A stretch of 21,678 nt of DNA from an uncultured virus (IMG/VR IMGVR_UViG_2061766007_000596) (lineage: Duplodnaviria > Heunggongvirae > Uroviricota > Caudoviricetes), in the IMG/VR virus record IMGVR_UViG_2061766007_000596, one strand, 5' to 3'. Below the pieces are notes generated by a model that worked only from the letters and a program-made list of their open reading frames with translations, had not been told where the DNA came from and did not search any database. The position numbers and the translations under genes are program-made. Positions 4,149 to 15,212 of this stretch are shown in pieces (within the stretch, counting starts at the first letter, position 1; every line of letters starts with the position of its first letter).

Positions 4149-4150
4149 AA

Positions 4151-4235
4151 CGCTGTGAGAAGGTGTCGGACCTTCCTTCCCGTAAAGGAATCCTCTGATT
4201 AGCAATCAGGAGCCTTGCCGCTCGGCCACCACAGC
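4151..4235 (-). tRNA. tRNA-Ser(GCT)
   Basis: Acceptor GCTGTGG/TCACAGC, G73, loop TT GCT AA, long variable arm; atypical T-loop TCCGACA. Confidence 0.8.
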
Positions 4236-4245
4236 AATTTTAAAA

Positions 4246-4330
4246 CAATGCCCCAGGGACTCGAACCCTGAAACCCTTTCGAGGTCTACGGGTTTTCAAG
4301 ACCCGCCCTTCGTCCAGCCAGTCGAGCATC
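4246..4330 (-). tRNA. tRNA-Ser(TGA), atypical D region
   Basis: Anticodon arm CGGGT CT TGA AA ACCCG, long variable arm, T arm CAGGG TTCGAGT CCCTG, acceptor GATGCTC/GGGCATT, G73. Confidence 0.75.
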
Positions 4331-4339
4331 AAATATATA

Positions 4340-4371
4340 AATCGAGGTCTGAAACGCTTCAGACCTCGATT
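4340..4371. repeat. Perfect 14-bp inverted repeat
   Basis: AATCGAGGTCTGAA acgc TTCAGACCTCGATT; overlaps the stop codon of the small ORF. Confidence 0.8.
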
Positions 4372-4493
4372 CCCGCATTTCTCAATTCTCTTTCAAGTTT
4401 TCTAAGTACACCAGGACATTTAATATTCTTCTGGCTTTGCTTTAATCTATTATACCTATCTTTTGTTATTGCAATCTTATCTTCCTTACTCAT
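4359..4493 (-). CDS. Small basic hypothetical protein (44 aa)
   Basis: MSKEDKIAITKDRYNRLKQSQKNIKCPGVLRKLERELRNAGIEV*; alternative upstream start at 4520; GAAAGGTAGG upstream. Confidence 0.55.
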   Translation of the reverse strand: MSKEDKIAITKDRYNRLKQSQKNIKCPGVLRKLERELRNAGIEV

Positions 4494-4529
4494 TCCCAAT
4501 GGAGTGTACCTACCTTTCATAAATTTTAA

Positions 4530-4648
4530 ATATATGGGTAGGGATTTGCACCCTACATAGTATTATGTGAGCACGCCCTTCGACGTTCAGAGTTAACCCA
4601 CTCCCTAATCATCTGACTATTAGCGTCTACCTATTCCGCCACCATATA
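4530..4648 (-). ncRNA. tRNA-like RNA with Leu-type D arm and a ~54-nt insert in place of the anticodon loop
   Basis: Acceptor TATATGG/CCATATA, D region TGGCGGAATAGGTAGACGC, stem ATAGT...ACTAT, T arm TAGGG TGCAAAT CCCTA. Confidence 0.7.
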
Positions 4649-4892
4649 TGCGATTTCTCGACTTATGATTAGATTAACCATAACTAATCTTGAATAGCTC
4701 GTCCGCGACCTCGCATAGTCCTTTCCACTATTCATTCTCTTGTTGCGATTTAAGAGATGGTTTTTACCCCGCTTCCTAAAAGCCCTAGTTTTCTGACTAC
4801 TTATAGTTCTAGTCTTAAAGGCGCGTTTTTCTTAGGGCGTGTATTCTTTTGGCATGAGTGAATAGTAACTCATTTTGCCTTGCCAAGGCGAA

Positions 4893-4975
4893 TGCACTCT
4901 GTGGGACTTGAACCCACAAGACTCTAGGTCAAGGGATTTTAAGTCCCTCGTGTTTACCGATTTCACCAAGAGTGC
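4893..4975 (-). tRNA. tRNA-Leu(TAA)
   Basis: Acceptor GCACTCT/AGAGTGC, A73, AGGGA CT TAA AA TCCCT, variable arm, GTGGG TTCAAGT CCCAC. Confidence 0.92.
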
Positions 4976-4982
4976 AAATTTC

Positions 4983-5083
4983 TAGACACATTTCTTGAGG
5001 TGGGAATCGAACCCACATTTTCGATTTTGCAGATCGATGTCTTAACCTTTTGACTACATAAGTTAATTTGCTGCATGTGTCTA
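4983..5083 (-). ncRNA. CAGCAA-stem RNA E1, enclosing a tRNA-Cys(GCA)-like body
   Basis: Terminal stem TAGACACAT/ATGTGTCTA plus GCAGCAA; inner D arm, TCGAT CT GCA AA ATCGA, GTGGG TTCGATT CCCAC; inner acceptor stem poorly paired. Confidence 0.7.
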
Positions 5084-5086
5084 TAG

Positions 5087-5170
5087 TCGGGGTAGAGGGT
5101 ATCGCGCCCACTCGAAGACTAAGCTAGTTGATTTACAGTCAACCCCACCTCTTTAATGGATTACACCCCG
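5087..5170 (-). tRNA. tRNA-Tyr(GTA), atypical
   Basis: GTTGA CT GTA AA TCAAC, variable arm, acceptor CGGGGTG/TACCCCG plus A73; T-loop CGCGATA. Confidence 0.7.
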
Positions 5171-5176
5171 ATATAC

Positions 5177-5284
5177 AAGGCTCTGCTCAGCTAATGCACT
5201 CCCAACTGTGCTACTCGTAAAAGCTTACAAGACAAGATTCGAACTTGCGACACCTAGCGGTATTTGGTTTGCTGTATGAGCCTT
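5177..5284 (-). ncRNA. CAGCAA-stem RNA E2: circularly permuted tRNA mimic (YrlA-like architecture)
   Basis: AAGGCTC ATACAGCAA..GCTAG GTGTC GCAAG TTCGAAT CTTGT CTTGTAA GCTT TTACGAG TA GCAC AGTTGGGA GTGC A TTAGC..GAGCCTT. Confidence 0.75.
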
Positions 5285-5287
5285 TAA

Positions 5288-5408
5288 GGCGGAAAGACGA
5301 GATTCGAACTCGCAACAACGTGCTCCCCAAGCATTAGAAAAGATTGCTGTTTCTGTCTACATCTAGACAATTTCTATAAACGCGCTCTACCATTGAGCTA
5401 CTTTCCGC
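5288..5408 (-). ncRNA. CAGCAA-stem RNA E3: tRNA body whose anticodon arm is replaced by the CAGCAA module
   Basis: GCGGAAAG TA GCTC AATGGTA GAGC ... TTGTCTA GATG TAGACAG AAACAGCAA ... GCGAG TTCGAAT CTCGT CTTTCCGC. Confidence 0.75.
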
Positions 5409-5558
5409 ATAAAACCAACCTTTAATCTACTTCGGAACATATTCAAGTTTCACCTAACTTAGAGTTCCTAACGTTCCAACTTGGTTGGGTGGTGAAGTTA
5501 TTTAAGATGTATCCGTTTCAAAGATACAAATGCATTCCTAGGTTTTTCAATGCTTTAA

Positions 5559-5629
5559 TAGCGGGTGCGAGATTCGAACTCGCGTCTCAAGGTTATGACC
5601 CTTGCAAGGCTCCGCTCCTCTAACCCGCG
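5559..5629 (-). tRNA. tRNA-Met(CAT), initiator-like
   Basis: CGCGGGT/ACCCGCT with unpaired C1, A11:T24, CAAGG GT CAT AA CCTTG, GCGAG TTCGAAT CTCGC; only two G:C pairs at the base of the anticodon stem. Confidence 0.8.
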
Positions 5630-5752
5630 TCATAGCCCCGTCACCACTCAGGGCGAATTTACTCACTCATTTACTATTGTTGAATGTTACACGCGCGGTA
5701 AATGTCTTTCAATTCTTTGCCAAACCATCTGCAGATAATTTGGCCTGGTGAA

Positions 5753-5825
5753 TCGAACCTAGGGGAGTTGAACCCACTGTTTCAAGAATGAAAATCTTGT
5801 GTACTAACCATTATACGAAGGTCCG
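5753..5825 (-). tRNA. tRNA-Glu(TTC)
   Basis: CGGACCT/AGGTTCG, D stem GTAT/GTAC, CAAGA TT TTC AT TCTTG, T-loop TTCAACT. Confidence 0.85.
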
Positions 5826-5997
5826 AGGGTGGCGGGAAGGGGGATCCCGCCGGAGAGGTAATTGCCTATGAACTTCACAGATATGCGTCGCACTTGAGGG
5901 GTAGTGTCTTCTTCCCTCTCCTCTCGTTAAGGTCAACCTTAGTTTCCTAGGCGAGTGAGCACTTGCTCTAAAGTGTAGACGTGTCACCATCTGCGAA

Positions 5998-6070
5998 TAT
6001 CCGCTGCAGGATTCGAACCTGCGTCACTTGGCTGAGAACCAAGTATCCTTAGCCTCTAGACGAAGCAGAC
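5998..6070 (-). tRNA. tRNA-Glu(CTC)
   Basis: GTCTGCT/AGCGGAT, CTTGG TT CTC AG CCAAG, GCAGG TTCGAAT CCTGC. Confidence 0.9.
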
Positions 6071-6219
6071 AAGTACTCGTCATTCCTCACGAGCGGGAGA
6101 GGTTTCGCTTGCTTTTAACGTCATCGAGCAGTTTGCACTCTACTTTTTGGACGAAAGACAGGAAGAGTTGCGGGTTATTGCCGGCCTCTTTCTTCAAGCC
6201 TTTTCAGCTAAAAAGCATG

Positions 6220-6792
6220 CTAACTGTCTTTTAAAACAATTTTTTCTCTATTAATTAATTTATATTTCCCAGTTGTTAATTTTTTATGACAAGTAGGGCA
6301 TAAAATAATTAAATTATCAATTTCATTATTTTGTCTATTTTCATCTATATGATGAACTTCTAATACATCATCATCTTCATTCCATTTACAAATAGCACAT
6401 TCATGAGGATAATTTTTAAAAGCATTTTTTCGATAATACCAAAAACTAGAAGTACCTGTTGTTATTTTAGCTAAATCTTGATGTTCTCTACAACAATAAT
6501 GATTTCCAGTTTTACTACGATTCATTTTTCTCGTTAATGTAAAAAACTTTTTATGACAATAAGCACATTCAACTTCTGTTCTAGCTTTTTCAAATTTACA
6601 AAAAGGACAAACATAATGAGCTTTATTATCTTTTCTTACATTTGCCCATTTAGTTTCAAATTCATAATTATGTTTTTTACATTTTATTTTTATAGTGGAT
6701 TCTTGATTTTCATAACCACCAATATATTCACAAGTTTTTAATGTATTTTTAAAAACTCTTTCTTTTATTTCTTTTTCAGTTAATTTTGGCAT
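6220..6792 (-). CDS. HNH homing endonuclease with N-terminal Zn-binding modules
   Basis: CAIC...LEVHHIDENRQNNEIDNLIILCPTCHK HNH motif; N-terminal CKKH/CPFC and CAYC/YCC. Confidence 0.9.
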   Translation of the reverse strand: MPKLTEKEIKERVFKNTLKTCEYIGGYENQESTIKIKCKKHNYEFETKWANVRKDNKAHYVCPFCKFEKARTEVECAYCHKKFFTLTRKMNRSKTGNHYCCREHQDLAKITTGTSSFWYYRKNAFKNYPHECAICKWNEDDDVLEVHHIDENRQNNEIDNLIILCPTCHKKLTTGKYKLINREKIVLKDS

Positions 6793-6855
6793 ATAAATTA
6801 CTCTCTTTTAATACCTATAAATTTCAAGGATACCAACCATCTTTAATATATAAAT

Positions 6856-6884
6856 ATTCTATCATATTTTTTTAAAATTGTCAA
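6856..6884 (-). promoter_or_regulatory. sigmaA-type promoter (repeat family)
   Basis: TTGACA-17-TAGAAT with extended -10 TG. Confidence 0.75.
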
Positions 6885-6900
6885 ATATAAATTATTTTCT

Positions 6901-6974
6901 AGACACATTTGAAGTTGTTCGCTCTTCCAAAATTAGTGTAAACAATATTATATAAATGATTGCTGTATGTGTCT
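6901..6974 (-). ncRNA. CAGCAA-stem RNA E4 (minimal form)
   Basis: AGACACAT ACAGCAA ... ATGTGTCT, directly 3' of tRNA-Asn. Confidence 0.65.
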
Positions 6975-6977
6975 GAG

Positions 6978-7051
6978 CGGGACTACTAGGATTTGAACCT
7001 AGGGCCTAATGATTAACAGTCATTCGCTACCACCAACTGAGCTATAGTCCC
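6978..7051 (-). tRNA. tRNA-Asn(GTT)
   Basis: GGGACTA/TAGTCCC, G73, AATGA CT GTT AA TCATT, CTAGG TTCAAAT CCTAG. Confidence 0.9.
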
Positions 7052-7449
7052 AATATATCCTAGCTTAGGTTATAAAGTCGGTGCTAGGGAACCGCCCACA
7101 TATTCTTACACCCTTATGGGGAAGGGGAGAGTCTTTTCGATAGAATGCTCAACCTCGGACTCGCGAGACCGCCTTATACACGTTAGCCGCTTTTCTATCT
7201 ATTTAGCTAAATGCACTTCATTCCTTGCTCTACGAAGCGAATTATAATGGTACAACCATAACTCCGGACAGTTCGGCTCTTTTTTAGACTTACGTACTAA
7301 GGTGAGACAAACATAACAAAACATCTCCTTAACGCCATTTTTTGCCATTCTTGGTAGGCACTAATGTGTTTTAAAGGAAACTCTAGTATCAAACTCTATA
7401 AGACATTGGAAATTACTCATGCATTCTCATTTCCTTATCTTATATAAAT

Positions 7450-7478
7450 ATTATATCATAATTTTTTAAAATTGTCAA
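7450..7478 (-). promoter_or_regulatory. sigmaA-type promoter (repeat family)
   Basis: TTGACA-17-TATAAT, TG extension. Confidence 0.85.
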
Positions 7479-7493
7479 TTATGATATAATTAC

Positions 7494-7639
7494 TAGGCAA
7501 ACTACGTTTCAAAAAACCATTGAGGAAAATCATATTGAACGTTTAGTAGAAGTTTTTGATTTTTTACAAGTTTTACAGACTTGACTTTTCAATTATAATA
7601 ATTATTCTATATTATATAAAAGTTTGCTGCATTTGCCTA
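7494..7639 (-). ncRNA. CAGCAA-stem RNA E5, carrying an isolated Tyr(GTA) anticodon stem-loop
   Basis: TAGGCAAA T GCAGCAA ... TTTGCCTA; internal CAAGT CTGTAAA ACTTG at 7567-7583. Confidence 0.65.
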
Positions 7640-7640
7640 A

Positions 7641-7713
7641 AGCCACCGGAGGGAATCGAACCCACAACCCTCTCATTACAAGTGAGATGCGCTGCCTGTT
7701 GCGCCACGGGGGC
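7641..7713 (-). tRNA. tRNA-Thr(TGT)
   Basis: GCCCCCG/CGGTGGC, D stem GCGC/GCGC, TCTCA CT TGT AA TGAGA, T-loop TTCGATT. Confidence 0.9.
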
Positions 7714-7754
7714 ATATTTGTTGAAAGGCTTTTTACCTTTCAACTTATATAAAT

Positions 7755-7783
7755 ATTATAACATAAATTTTTAAAAATGTCAA
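7755..7783 (-). promoter_or_regulatory. sigmaA-type promoter (repeat family)
   Basis: TTGACA-17-TATAAT, TG extension. Confidence 0.85.
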
Positions 7784-7786
7784 GTA

Positions 7787-8332
7787 TCATTTAAAATCGT
7801 GGTCTTGAATTGTAAGTCTAGCATTTTTCCAATGAGTAGCAAAATAAAGATATTCTGTCATATCAATTCTCTGCCCCTCATACACAACAATGGAATTACC
7901 ATTCATAGCATACCACGCTGCATCAATGCATTCTTGGGGGAGATCACCATCATCATACATTTTTAATGCTTTCTTCAATCTACCATCGGTTTTTGGACGA
8001 AATTGACCTGATTCATAAATAACTGTTTCTATTGTATCTTCAAAGTCTTCATCTTCAACCCTGTTCATAACTACAATTCCAACAGCCTGTTGTCCGGCTT
8101 CACACTGATTACCAGCTTCACACCAAATTAAAGCAGACAATAATCTTAATTCTTCTGATTGCTTTTGTTCTCCTAGTTCTTTAGCATAAGCCCATTTAGC
8201 TTTGTCTTCTGTTATATCTTGTACCATTTCTGTTATTCCTACACTTGGCATTATATCTACCGCTTGTGCTTTAATCGGGGTACTTAATAACAATAAAAAA
8301 GAACTAATAGTTATTACTTTCTTTAATTTCAT
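7787..8332 (-). CDS. Cell wall hydrolase, SleB/CwlJ (Hydrolase_2) family, with signal peptide
   Basis: LLSALIWCEAGNQ..GQQAVGIVVMNRV...F.DTIETVIYESGQF; N-terminal K-rich/hydrophobic/AQA signal. Confidence 0.85.
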   Translation of the reverse strand: MKLKKVITISSFLLLLSTPIKAQAVDIMPSVGITEMVQDITEDKAKWAYAKELGEQKQSEELRLLSALIWCEAGNQCEAGQQAVGIVVMNRVEDEDFEDTIETVIYESGQFRPKTDGRLKKALKMYDDGDLPQECIDAAWYAMNGNSIVVYEGQRIDMTEYLYFATHWKNARLTIQDHDFK

Positions 8333-8370
8333 TTTTCTCTCCTTAATGCATTAGCCTATACAAGAGGAAG

Positions 8371-8443
8371 TAGGAATGACAGGACTTGAACCTGCGATCT
8401 CCACATCCCAAATGTGGCGCCTTTCCAACTAGGCTACATCCCT
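8371..8443 (-). tRNA. tRNA-Pro(TGG)
   Basis: AGGGATG/CATTCCT, A73, CCACA TT TGG GA TGTGG, GCAGG TTCAAGT CCTGT. Confidence 0.92.
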
Positions 8444-8645
8444 AGAATTGGTGGGTGTCTTACCCACCGCCAAGTAAATCAAAATATATAGACACTATAG
8501 AAACGATTTACAATTTTCAACTTCGACATTGAAGGATGGCTAATCCGCACCTACGGTTTTACGACCTTAGTAGATATCGTCCACACACTATCGCGAATAT
8601 AAGTTATTAGATATGTTTTATATCTTTTCAATAACTTATATAAAT

Positions 8646-8674
8646 ATTATAACATAATTTTTTAAAATTGTCAA
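8646..8674 (-). promoter_or_regulatory. sigmaA-type promoter (repeat family)
   Basis: TTGACA-17-TATAAT, TG extension. Confidence 0.85.
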
Positions 8675-8694
8675 ATATATGTTATAATATTTAA

Positions 8695-8767
8695 TGGAAC
8701 TACAGGGGATTGAACCCTGAACCTCTGCCTTGCAAGGGCAGCGCTCTCCCAGTTGAGCTATAGCCCC
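8695..8767 (-). tRNA. tRNA-Ala(TGC)
   Basis: GGGGCTA/TAGTTCC with G3:U70, CTGCC CT TGC AA GGCAG. Confidence 0.95.
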
Positions 8768-8913
8768 AAAATGGCGGGATTTTTTCAACCNNNNNNNNNN
8801 NNNNNNNNNNNNNNNNNNNNNNNNNNNNNNNNNNNNNNNNNNNNNNNNNTCTACTTCTCATGTTGCCAATTTAAGATTGCGCATTAACCAATCACCTGAA
8901 TGAAAGGAGGGTT

Positions 8914-12066: not shown

Positions 12067-12192
12067 TTCTTTTTTCTCCTTAAAATTTAAAATTTGTTTT
12101 TTGTTTTCTTATTTCTTATATATATATTATATCATAATTTTTTGAAAANNNNNNNNNNNNNNNNNNNNNNNNNNNNNNNNNNNNNNNNNNNN

Positions 12193-14001
12193 AATATCTT
12201 CCATTTTCACATCTTTAAGATGTGGATACCTAAACTTTTCTGCCTCTTCTGGATTAACGAGATATATAGTTTCTTTTCTATCTTTCCGCCAGGGCATTTC
12301 TCTGTCTATTGCGATAGCATTTTTCTTTAATCTGTTAATCACTGCTAATTCACAGAAAGGACAGCAATAAAGACTTTCAGTTGCTATATCTACAATTTTA
12401 TTGGCTTTTTCATCTAAATGATACTTTTTTAATTCTTTTTCGATTTTAAGCTGTTTTTCTCTATCCCAATCATAGCGATAATTTGTATAATACTGGAAAG
12501 ATACTTTCGGTCTCATCTGAGGATTTTCTTTTATATCCTTATATAAATGATGATTCCAAACTATTTTCCCAATAGTACTTTCAATGAAGAAAATATTGTC
12601 ACATTCAGGACAGTGTTTTATACTCTTTAAACAATATTTACATAATTTTCCAACGGGAGTTTCTGTTAATTGTCCTTTAGTATATTGTCCATTACAGTGT
12701 GCACAAGTAAAATACTTGTCCAAACAATCATTACATATTACTTCTGAAACATGATAATATCTTTCATTATAATCATCTGTTCCAGAATCATACTCTAAAC
12801 TACTTTCACCACAGCATAAGCATTTAGACTTCCCGCTTACAGAGATAATTTTAGTATGCTCTACCTTATTACGATAGCACCAATAGTAAGTCAAAGGATC
12901 ATTGAGCATATCATTATACATTCCTTTGGTATCCCAAAGTATATTATGCTTTTTAAAACTCTTAGCTCTTATCCAATCTCTTTGCTTGTCCATGCGATAT
13001 GCAGATCCCACGTATTTCATATCTTCATAGCGTTCGGGGCCGTAGGTATAATTCCAGCCTAAGTTTTCCTTAGCTAAATCCTTAGTATGCTCAAGAATTT
13101 TGAAACTTAAATCCTTGTTTGTATATGGATAGGGTTTACCTGTCATAATAATATCTTTAGTTACATATACCAATTGCCGCCATCTCTTATTATTCCAAAC
13201 ACCAATGACTTCGCCGGTCTCTTCGTCTATAGCTTCCCCATTAAAAACATAGGGTCTAGATGAATTCTTCAGATATGCACATATTACATTATTTGAGTTC
13301 ATCATCTCTACTGTTCCTACATGATAGCACCCATGAGTTTGCCATGACATACAAGAAGTCCAGTTAGAGCTATTATCACTCATAGTTAAATAATCCAAAG
13401 GGTGTATAGATAAAGCTACAGTACCTTTGATTGTTTTTTCACTAAGAATAATTGCGTGTCTTTTGCGATAATCCTCAAATGCAGGTATATTCCAATCCCA
13501 ATCATCTTTGAAGTATTCCATTATTCTAGTAATAGCTCTAAGGGGCTTAGCATTTTCCTGAATCTGGAGCATTTTATTCGCATTGGGCTTTTTAATTTTT
13601 AAACAACCATGATAATTTATCTTATTATCAATAAGATTATATGGTTCAAGAATATTTCTTATAAAATTTAAATCGTCCTGCGTTAGACCCCACTCTTCTC
13701 GCTTTTCTCTAATCACATTAAGATAGAACTTCCTATAATGTTCATAGAAAGAAAGAACATCATTATTTAATTCTTTAATTTCAAAAGTAAGTATCTGTTC
13801 ATCTTTTTCGTACTCAAAAGGGAACTCTTTAATAAAAGAGTTTCCAAGCAGTCTATAAAGTTTCTGATTTGCATGAGACCAATCTTCTAGCCATTCATCT
13901 AATCCAATAAAATGGTCTGAACAACCAAAAGACTGAATAAAAAGATTAAGTTTTTGTTTGTCCTGTTCAGACAATTTTTCAATTAGATTGATATACTTCA
14001 T
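12193..14001 (-). CDS. Large hypothetical phage protein with C-terminal Zn-ribbon cluster (3' end lost in gap)
   Basis: SIHPLDYLTMSDN...WTSCM..GCY..GTVEMMNS, NNKRWRQL; multiple CxxC; the stop probably lies in the N-run. Confidence 0.8.
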
Positions 14002-14002
14002 A

Positions 14003-14239
14003 TTAGTACCTCATTAAATAGTTTTTGATTTCGTTCTCAATACGTCTCTTGCTTTCAGGCATAAGGTCGCCATCAGATATATTCAAACCCATGCATATAG
14101 TCTGGAGCAAATCATTGGGGTCATCACCATCTTCAAAGTTACTTTTAAACGTGCGGATGATCTGATCTGCATACTCTTCTGACTGAAGTATCATTACCTC
14201 AATTCCGTTAATCTTACCATCTGAAAAATCAATCAACAT
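14003..14239 (-). CDS. Small acidic hypothetical protein
   Basis: GAGGTG RBS; directly downstream of a promoter. Confidence 0.7.
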   Translation of the reverse strand: MLIDFSDGKINGIEVMILQSEEYADQIIRTFKSNFEDGDDPNDLLQTICMGLNISDGDLMPESKRRIENEIKNYLMRY

Positions 14240-14270
14240 AAACAATCACCTCTTTTTCATTTATATAAAT

Positions 14271-14299
14271 ATTATAACATAAATTTTTTAAAAAGTCAA
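14271..14299 (-). promoter_or_regulatory. sigmaA-type promoter (repeat family)
   Basis: TTGACT-17-TATAAT, TG extension. Confidence 0.8.
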
Positions 14300-14335
14300 T
14301 AGCGAGCTTCCGCCCGCCATNNNNNNNNNNNNNNN

Positions 14336-15212
14336 AACGAGTAAGCTGTGTCTGAGCAACATCGTTATAAGTGTCAAGTTTCTTGATTGTGCCAGATGCG
14401 ATTACAAGATAATCACCCTGTTCGAAAGGCTGGAAAGTAGAAGTAAACCATGTAAATACTCTTTCCTTTTCATCAACAAAAGTGAACACTGTTGAGAAAC
14501 CATATTTAGTTTCAAAGCTGTACTTGCGGATGAGCTGAACCTTAATGTCTTTAACTTTCTCTCCTACCTCACCTGCCCAAACTGAAGCGTACTGAGGCTG
14601 AACCGCCGCAATCTTTCCTTCAACAATCTTCTGTGCATCTCTATTAAAGTTAGCCTTTCCCCATGCACTCCATTCGGCTATATCATCAAGTTTTACCTCG
14701 ATAAGATTATCAGCATACTTCTCATCTCTTGTAGCCTTATGCCACTTGAGAGTACTAGAGAAGCGGAATCCCGCGTCTTTAAGTTCATCTTTAATCTGAT
14801 AAGAATTAGCTCCGGCATAAATGTAGGTTACTTCATCTGCATTAAAGCCATTCTCGTCAAGCCACTTAATGCGGTTGCCGGCGAATTCTGCCTTCATTTT
14901 AGCTTCCCGCTCTTCTGCCTTTTTCTGACGGGCTCTCTCGTTCGCACGCTCCATAGACTCTAATTCTTTTTCAGTGTAAAGACGGACTTCCTTGATAAAG
15001 TATCCCTTACCCCAGCAGGAATAACATATTCCGCCATCTACGGGAATTGGAATAGGCTGTCCATTTTCTACTCTAGCTACAATAATGCCATGACCAGAGC
15101 AGCGATCACACTTCTCTTTGACTTTTGTATAAAGCTTGCCGTTCTTTTCAAAAGGCTCACCTACACGCTGGCAATTAGCATAACTTTTAGCAACCATTAA
15201 TTTGTTTTCCAT
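14336..15212 (-). CDS. Zn-finger plus C-terminal OB-fold nucleic-acid-binding protein (3' end in gap)
   Basis: CDRCSGHG...CYSCWGKG (CxxCxGxG) and GEVGEK...FETKYG....FTFVD....FTWFTS OB-like C-terminus. Confidence 0.65.

Follow-up and report, generated by a model that had tools for sequence, protein, structure and literature searches.

The E3 element on the minus strand of the studied viral DNA (21,678 nt, referred to below as the window) is, in our moderately confident interpretation, a functional gene whose non-coding product has the shape of a tRNA but belongs to a Y-RNA-like family, rather than a gene for an ordinary decoding tRNA. E3 and the family of modules to which its side arm belongs probably represent an undescribed branch of the Ro60/Y RNA systems and not ordinary tRNAs, since hundreds of phages carry this conserved arm beside a Ro60-like ring protein. 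The modules share a conserved structure, exist in normal and permuted forms, co-occur with the ring protein and adjoin its gene. Co-occurrence and analogy suggest that the module docks the Ro60-like protein, and under the best reading E3 and its neighbor E2 would be tRNA mimics that act like the Y RNAs of a sister branch.

Genomic Context and Structure of E3

The window looks like part of a phage genome: some of its ORFs are tail-fiber-like, and others code for a peptidase, an HNH endonuclease, and a cell-wall hydrolase of the endolysin type. A tRNA array occupies positions 4150–8768 of the minus strand, where ARAGORN recognized 11 tRNAs, E3 not being among them. The Rfam search of the window returned the tRNA genes of ARAGORN and one extra hit (5289–5407), which is E3; its score against the tRNA model (RF00005) is 44.3 bits, with the gathering score being 29 and the E-value on the whole window 1.3e-6. 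Neither an RNA-processing enzyme (Pfam and PHROGs) nor a Ro60-like or DUF2828-type homolog was found among the ORFs of this 21.7-kb window, which is only a fragment of the phage. GenBank phages gave zero BLAST matches to the array and elements E1–E3 used as queries, and a search for relatives of two window proteins led to a single 6-kb contig and no more. Two minus-strand ORFs (12127–14001 and 14229–15212) contain runs of X that correspond to masked N in the DNA; the 624-aa ORF with such runs is cysteine-rich and has no match in PHROGs.

The acceptor stem, D arm, and T arm of E3, as well as the UAGAAA/UUUCUA helix, the P2 hairpin, and the CAGCAA strand that follows it, had been pointed out in the first-pass annotation, and all of them are present in the minus-strand sequence (Table 1). 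The Rfam match covers model positions 1–71, with 58 nt in place of 11 inner anticodon-arm positions. E3 as encoded contains no continuous 5-bp anticodon stem with a 7-nt loop, this arm being split by an insert of approximately 47 nt, which is composed of helix P1, hairpin P2, and the strand ACAGCAA. Since this module sits in the 5′ strand of the anticodon stem (positions 28–30), the arm is split and not, as had been proposed, replaced: a canonical arm with the anticodon GGG can be read as CG(U)-insert-(U)GC-UUGGGGA-GCACG, and the small hairpin previously described as a separate structure is the top of the split stem. With the insert removed in silico, E3 acquires a 5-bp stem, U33, anticodon GGG, G37, a 5-nt variable loop, and the T arm. 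This solution was obtained by eye and with a strict-rule script (GGG, x = 3, junction after the third nucleotide), which replaced an ARAGORN deletion scan that was too permissive (514 calls from 1000 variants). The corresponding loops in E3 relatives are UUGAGGA and AUGAGGA. The relatives L010 and L011 lack the G-1:C73 pair that could be read as His-like, and its resemblance to tRNA-His is probably due to chance.

The fold of the whole E3 element has a z-score of −2.43 (2/200 shuffles equally good). The insert folded alone does no better than shuffled sequences (z −0.20, not significant), and the support for it is therefore comparative. E3 is also present in a 416-nt contig from another study (X4), where it is approximately 88% identical and has G-C in place of U-A in P2, a compensatory change; in the closest relative of E3, the colinear locus L011, P2 likewise shows compensation, A-U being replaced by U-A. 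The region 4850–5700 is covered without a single difference by a 12,651-nt contig (X2), possibly from the source sample; there is thus no sign of a chimera at E3, a concern that had been raised earlier. An insert-free ortholog of E3 was searched for, and the sole match was a chance one in a coding sequence. Pairing of CAGCAA with the variable loop, as in the minimum-energy fold of E3 (AACCG/CGGUU in L010), was rejected because it fails in L006, L015, and L003.

Table 1. Features of E3, E2, and other module-bearing elements of the window.
Feature	Positions	Strand	Evidence and remarks
E3, tRNA-shaped RNA gene with closed module	5289..5408	-	Rfam tRNA; colinear with L011 (IMG/VR)
E3 acceptor GCGGAAAG/CUUUCCGC	5408-5401 / 5296-5289	-	Read in sequence; stems covary among relatives
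E3 acceptor 5′ strand CGGAAAG, pairs with CUUUCCG	5401..5407 with 5290-5296	-	5289, discriminator C; 5408, extra G
E3 D arm GCUC-AAUGGUA-GAGC	5384..5398	-	Sequence and Rfam alignment
E3 anticodon stem, 5′ strand, first 2-3 nt (C27 G28 U29) ahead of insert	5380..5382	-	Pairs with 5319-5321; junction x = 3 or 4
P1, 5′ strand UAGAAA, pairs with UUUCUA	5371..5376 with 5335-5340	-	A/U-rich; weak in relatives
P2 hairpin UGUCUA-GAUG-UAGACA	5354..5369	-	Covariation (n = 48); compensatory changes in X4 and L011
Invariant strand ACAGCAA, directly 3′ of P2; AAACAGCAA follows the hairpin	5344..5350 (motif)	-	Alignment of relatives
Rest of E3 anticodon arm: GC, loop UUGGGGA, GCACG	5319..5332	-	In silico join; includes GCUUGGGGAGC (5331-5321)
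E3 T arm GCGAG-UUCGAAU-CUCGU	5297..5313	-	Sequence and Rfam alignment
E2, permuted anticodon-less tRNA-like RNA with open module	5174..5284	-	Weak YrlA match; no anticodon solution
E2 P2 strands; ACAGCAA	5278-5284 / 5177-5183; 5269-5275	-	Read in sequence
E2 T arm; closed acceptor hairpin; D arm	5232-5248; 5214-5231; 5196-5211	-	
tRNA-Cys-like gene (4992-5063) between module halves	4983..5083	-	Halves UAGACAC-AU-GCAGCAA (5083-5068) and GUGUCUA (4989-4983)
Fourth module, AGACACAU-ACAGCAA, ~51 nt of cargo, then AUGUGUCU	6901..6974	-	Directly after tRNA-Asn

The neighboring element E2 begins only 3–4 nt downstream of E3, at 5284; a distance of 4 nt had been stated in the first-pass annotation. 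P2 of E2 is formed by its two ends (AAGGCUC/GAGCCUU), and its acceptor stem is closed by a GCUU loop; E3 is the reverse, with P2 closed by a loop and the acceptor stem open. The module of E2 is carried on a 5-bp stem (UUAGC/GCUAG), and in silico joining under the strict rule revealed no recognizable anticodon loop in this element. E2 is the sole stretch of the window that matches the YrlA family of Rfam (30.3 bits, below the gathering score of 69), no such match being obtained for E3. The idea that the two elements are circular permutants sharing one module was borne out topologically, and it holds for the whole family, since both forms recur in other phages with the same signature. Under the best reading, E2 is the same particle as E3, opened at P2 and closed at the acceptor.

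Several other features of this part of the array were noted. The X4 contig joins tRNA-Leu directly to E3 and is devoid of the 307-nt block that contains the tRNA-Cys-like gene, E1, and E2; position 4975 is joined to 5283, with exactly 4976–5282 missing, and these three elements thus make up one indel unit. The acceptor stem of the tRNA-Cys-like gene has only 4/7 pairs in the alignment. E1 (5090–5170, minus strand) is tRNA-Tyr(GUA)-like, with a good acceptor stem and anticodon arm, a non-canonical T arm (loop CGCGAUA, U-U mismatch), and a D loop lacking GG; it is called neither by ARAGORN nor by Rfam. Another uncalled tRNA-like element (4540–4650, minus strand) has the acceptor UAUAUGG/CCAUAUA and the T arm GUAGGG-UGCAAAU-CCCUAC; a 5-bp stem bears a loop of 9 nt (CUAAU AGUCAGAUG AUUAG), the extra region is long, and the ACnGCAA motif is absent. 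The number of ACAGCAA occurrences in the window (8, with 2.9 expected) is equaled in 3/100 shuffles, and the count alone is not significant.

Conservation and Topology of the Module Family

A first pattern scan (E3 D arm, long gap, T loop) retrieved 16 IMG/VR loci, 6 of which (L001, L002, L006, L010, L011, and L015) show the build of E3 by eye, with L003 being doubtful; two or three tandem copies were observed in several loci. A second scan (ACAGCAA, gap, T loop) retrieved at least 123 loci, not all of them members of the family, and its pattern biases the set toward ACAGCAA. When 48 closed modules were aligned with MAFFT, A-C-n-G-C-A-A proved invariant and P2 85.9% paired, with 99 double-change cells versus 40 in shuffles. 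The covariation score of P2 is reached by none of 500 shuffles, and slid registers are only 31–48% paired. Two pairs of this hairpin (U-A and C-G) are conserved, and many others are G-U pairs, from which it follows that the structure is strand-specific, i.e., formed by RNA. The signature shared by closed and open modules also comprises GA(Y) in the 3′ strand of P2, located at −7 to −5 relative to the motif, and G-U following the opposite P2 strand. P1 is a helix of 4–6 bp within a three-way junction, and both insert junctions lie at its base; the distance between the motif and the 3′ junction varies between 9 and 24 nt across the elements. No other Rfam family or ribozyme matches the module at E-values up to 10.

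Open modules by far outnumber closed ones in the retrieved loci, with 281 and 31 instances, respectively, as counted by script (7/7-bp P2 with at least 6 Watson–Crick pairs), the open count including chance pairs. The order of parts in the permuted elements is P2 strand, ACAGCAA, anticodon arm, T arm, 3′ strand of the acceptor, linker, 5′ strand of the acceptor, D arm, and P2; a clear permuted tRNA-Phe is found in L094. A total of 69 module-bearing tRNA-like elements were identified by the detector, 29 in normal order and 40 permuted. In silico removal of the module yields a canonical anticodon arm in 41 of the 69 (a raw count with no shuffle baseline), and in 35 of those 41 the junction falls at tRNA positions 26–30, 1–5 nt after the D stem. 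The loops obey the U33 and R37 rules, with G37 accompanying the anticodons GGG and GAG. An anticodon could be assigned to 14 module-bearing tRNAs, and for one-half of them (7/14) a canonical isoacceptor is also encoded in the same 20-kb region.

Open modules enclosing 20–70 nt contain a canonical 5-bp/7-nt hairpin in 41/136 cases versus 5.35 in shuffles, 7 of the 41 hairpins being T-loop sequences. Some open modules wrap lone anticodon hairpins and others unrelated cargo; the units with an anticodon hairpin only favor Lys, Asn, and Pro anticodons, which are typical nuclease targets. An NCCA sequence is encoded in 5/40 permuted acceptor linkers (two of the five are near-identical), compared with approximately 0.6 expected from a 1-in-64 estimate, and in some permuted elements a stable tetraloop, GAAA or UUCG, closes the acceptor. 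Closed modules on four different contigs (L030, L101, L125, and L139) share a common acceptor GCGUGG.../...CCACGC and carry the anticodons GGA, GGU, GGA, and GAU, respectively, an anticodon switch on a common body.

The Putative Ro60-like Partner Protein

The module is not tracked by RtcB (5/30 records), by TROVE proteins as defined by Pfam (0/31), or by the tRNA splicing endonuclease (PF01974, 0/31; among the controls it was found in archaea only). Unbiased clustering of ORFs from 22 regions of 20 kb around modules revealed one family present in 13/22 regions, with the runner-up present in 5; its members combine DUF2828 with DUF7788/vWA. PF25043 was detected in 27/31 module-bearing records (17/18 of those at least 90% complete), always as a single copy, and in none of the 14 control genomes. 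The protein is missing from four module-bearing records, three of which are 29–66% complete and one of which (G008) is a 99%-complete provirus. Among the matches listed, comparison of coordinates shows a distance to the module locus of no more than 8 kb for 16 of the 27 genes and of no more than 1 kb for about nine; in L011 the Ro60-like gene is approximately 3 kb away. In a second set, the protein was found in 4/5 module-bearing contigs, the exception being a 10.7-kb fragment, and in 0/16 contigs lacking the module, which were picked by eye and only 6 of which are at least 90% complete. These co-occurrence counts are not independent events, since related phages share genes. The base rate of the protein among GenBank phage records is 707/50,697 (tblastn), and it is labeled there as hypothetical, DUF2828, vWFA, RNA-binding, or "Ro-like RNA binding protein".

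The DUF2828+DUF7788 protein is predicted to have the Ro60 fold. The AlphaFold model built from 12 family members (pLDDT 80.8, pTM 0.75) has Ro60/TROVE structures as all of its top 11 Foldseek matches in PDB, over the full length and with TM-scores of 0.45–0.59 (1yvr, E 1.6e-7). Further matches to Ro60 structures are 9kop, 9l5y, and 2nvo, the Thermus phage protein and Deinococcus Rsr being among them. The best PDB matches by sequence are likewise TROVE proteins, although weak (E 0.0036). The combination characteristic of Ro60, a helical-repeat ring with a vWA domain carrying MIDAS, is found in the predicted fold of the partner protein, and the MIDAS motif DxSGS is invariant in the family.

Modules Beside the Gene in Cultured Phages

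In the reverse direction, seven cultured phages of different hosts were chosen by the presence of the protein alone. All seven contain between 1 and 6 unannotated modules on the strand of the gene and within 5 kb of it, compared with 0.4–1.1 modules per strand in shuffled sequence; a few extra matches fall in coding sequence. In LeBron, LP-125, F357, 6ec, and MrDarsey, modules occupy the non-coding gap adjoining the gene: two in the 360-nt gap after gp53 of Mycobacterium phage LeBron, three in the gap before the gene in Listeria phage LP-125, two likewise before the gene in Campylobacter phage F357, three in the gap after the gene in Staphylococcus phage 6ec, and six in the tRNA array and the gap before the gene in Bacillus phage MrDarsey. 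Four modules of Salmonella phage FelixO1 are located between annotated tRNAs, 0.3–1.1 kb downstream of ORF86. The only module of Aeromonas phage Aeh1 is of the closed, E3 type, lies approximately 2.8 kb downstream, and is labeled in GenBank as a 122-nt tRNA-Val.

The Aeh1 "tRNA-Val CAC" (L168, 9181–9302) carries the variant ACCGCAA, and its module is located 3′, not 5′, of the putative anticodon loop. In LP-125 (L166, 7846–11494), an RtcB-like ligase and a second putative RNA ligase are encoded 1–4 kb downstream of the DUF2828 gene and the modules, a neighborhood that recalls the rsr-yrlBA-rtcBA operon of Salmonella. Enterococcus phage EFDG1, which was found via RNA similarity, has three units directly upstream of the DUF2828 gene with promoter-like and terminator-like sequences of their own, and one of the units is a permuted tRNA-Phe(GAA) that duplicates a canonical tRNA-Phe encoded elsewhere in the genome. 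Ahead of each unit of EFDG1 (L140, 2440–2870) stands a second hairpin, also conserved (GUUCC...GGAAC or GCUCU...AGAGC), in which a covarying outer stem is accompanied by an inner stem, a GCC bulge, and then AUAAAG; this hairpin is absent from the window.

Comparison with Known Systems

Permuted and non-canonically interrupted tRNA genes are known in Cyanidioschyzon, green algae, and Archaea, where their maturation requires a bulge-helix-bulge motif and a splicing endonuclease. Like the permuted genes of this kind, E2-type elements have the 3′ half upstream of the 5′ half, and like the interrupted ones, E3-type elements have an insertion in the anticodon stem and not at position 37/38. Unlike them, the module-bearing genes have no bulge-helix-bulge, the phage records contain no splicing endonuclease, and the hosts are bacterial. 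Another parallel is the engineered "tRNA scaffold", in which an RNA aptamer is grafted on the anticodon stem of a tRNA and thereby obtains tRNA processing and stability. E3 similarly bears a functional RNA module on the anticodon stem, but it is natural and keeps the anticodon loop beside the module.

The closest parallel is provided by Y RNAs, which are reported to be small RNAs encoded beside Ro60 and consist of a stem with a conserved single-stranded motif and a tRNA-like domain (PMC4201824; PMC12135203). YrlA carries the motif GNCGAAN0-1G in its terminal stem, on the 5′ side (Chen et al., 2014, PMC4201824), and Thermus phage phiLo has Yrl1/Yrl2 together with phiRo60 (PMC12135203). YrlA and other Y RNAs (RF02553) are encoded within a few kb of a Ro60 ortholog and on its strand; the module RNAs of the cultured phages likewise adjoin the gene of a Ro60-type ring protein, whereas the window contains no such gene near E3 and E2. 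The stem of the module RNAs resembles that of Y RNAs in carrying a short single-stranded motif on the outgoing strand, GCAA instead of CGAA. The order of parts in E2 (T arm, closed acceptor, D arm; 5248–5196) is that of YrlA, whereas E3 has the normal tRNA order. Two defining features of YrlA are lacking, for which reason E2 and E3 are not classed with it: the scores are below the Rfam threshold of 69 (30.3 bits for E2 and up to 43.2 bits for EFDG1), and GNCGAAN0-1G is absent, E2 having GGCUCAUAC at the motif site and the family as a whole ACnGCAA. Also unlike YrlA, the module RNAs are present in several copies per phage, many of them keep a true anticodon hairpin, and a closed stem may be embedded in a tRNA of normal order, as in E3. 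The partner protein, in turn, is missed by the Pfam TROVE model, in contrast to Ro60 of the Y RNA systems.

A Ro60-like structure was reported for gp130 of the Felixounavirus Bas63, which is encoded directly upstream of tRNA genes; according to this PhageMaP preprint, gp130 counters the ppl defense system, and the authors guess that some of the tRNA genes are Y RNAs (PMC11482910). The passage on gp130 names no RNA, motif, or structure (PMC11482910), whereas here the RNAs are located in FelixO1. The literature search, which covered main texts outside subscription journals, revealed no report that describes the motif, permuted tRNA genes of phages, or RNA binding by DUF2828.

Proposed Role and Alternative Explanations

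For the processing and biological role of E3-type RNAs, we infer the following scheme. E3 would be transcribed with the phage tRNA array, and its free acceptor ends would probably undergo tRNA-like trimming. The transcript would fold as a tRNA body with an anticodon stem bearing the side arm between nucleotides 28 and 30. The arm, with its weak P1, P2 with the U-A and C-G pairs, and the ACnGCAA strand, would be the conserved functional part and a putative docking site for the ring protein (DUF2828 helical domain plus vWA/MIDAS); such docking would mirror the way in which the stem and CGAA motif of a Y RNA sit on Ro60. The tRNA body with the anticodon hairpin may then serve as a second module, bringing the protein to tRNA-binding partners or presenting the anticodon loop, and the role of the particle may lie in the direction of tRNA damage, repair, or counter-defense.

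Canonical loops with U33, R37, and G37 next to anticodons ending in G fit a decoding tRNA equally well. E3 might be an interrupted tRNA-Pro(GGG) gene, from which the intron-like module is excised and the halves are ligated into an ordinary decoding tRNA; E2-type permuted genes would mature via a circular intermediate, as in Cyanidioschyzon, possibly with the Ro60-like protein aiding the processing. The 41/69 canonical arms obtained by joining, with 35 junctions at positions 26–30, the adherence to the U33/R37 rules (G37 for GGG and GAG), NCCA in 5/40 permuted linkers, and the tRNA-Val annotation of the 122-nt Aeh1 copy in GenBank agree with such splicing. Judging by established ribosome structures, the 30S P site should leave no room for an arm at position 28/29, so that decoding would require its removal. 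However, the endonuclease is found in 0/31 and RtcB in only 5/30 phage records, a bulge-helix-bulge is absent with both junctions at the base of P1, the 3′ junction lies at variable distances (9–24 nt) from the motif, tetraloops (GAAA/UUCG) cap some permuted acceptors, many modules enclose an anticodon hairpin alone or non-tRNA cargo, and the joining count is raw, with no shuffle baseline. The existence of anticodon-less forms, such as E2, and of forms with an anticodon hairpin only, as well as the duplication of a canonical isoacceptor by one-half of the assignable module tRNAs, argue against plain decoding in general. We consider splicing unlikely. A phage RNA cut-and-join or capture system built around the Ro60-like ring is quite unlikely, its two versions taken jointly. 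In one of them, E3- and E2-type genes would be true interrupted and permuted tRNA genes that mature with neither a bulge-helix-bulge nor the endonuclease, which, if true, would give the bacterial world its first system of this kind; in the other, the particle would display authentic anticodon loops as bait, and damage by host anticodon nucleases would thereby be trapped or repaired.

The module may also act alone or via a host factor, e.g., as a small ribozyme, an array-processing stem, or a nuclease decoy; the association with the Ro60-like gene would then reflect nothing more than common descent of tRNA-rich phages. The flanks of each unit form a covarying P2 of its own, similar to rRNA processing stems; a whole tRNA-Cys-like gene is bracketed by module halves in the window; approximately 10 conserved nucleotides would suffice for a small catalytic core; and Lys, Asn, and Pro anticodons are preferred by the hairpin-only units. 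Nonetheless, modules adjoin the gene in phages of Mycobacterium, Listeria, Campylobacter, Staphylococcus, Bacillus, and Enterococcus, and such adjacency in a gap across six host genera makes ancestry alone hard to accept as the cause; moreover, no ribozyme or other Rfam family was matched at E-values up to 10. This explanation is likewise unlikely. By comparison, a tRNA pseudogene in decay that received an insertion by chance, or an artifact of assembly, is a highly improbable explanation of E3. The absence of an ARAGORN call for E3 and its degenerate neighbors (the tRNA-Cys-like gene with 4/7 acceptor pairs and E1 with an odd T arm) would fit decay, but the motif is invariant and the helix covaries across 48 copies, the X4 relative keeps E3 with compensatory changes, and the X2 contig spans the region with zero differences.

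Implications

If E3 and its relatives are indeed the Y-RNA-like partners of the ring protein, an RNA partner with a defined motif and structure would become available for the Ro60-like family of 707 GenBank phages, whose carriers include laboratory-studied or laboratory-used phages (FelixO1 and phages of Listeria, Staphylococcus, Campylobacter, and Enterococcus). The module RNAs of GenBank phages are unannotated or, in one case, annotated as a 122-nt tRNA. Module-bearing genes are overlooked or mislabeled by tRNA finders. The family also provides a natural circular permutation of a tRNA-like RNA, which occurred many times over. Under the same reading, Ro60/Y RNA biology would gain a branch that the TROVE model misses, and the role of Ro60-type particles with tRNA-shaped RNAs during infection becomes open to testing.
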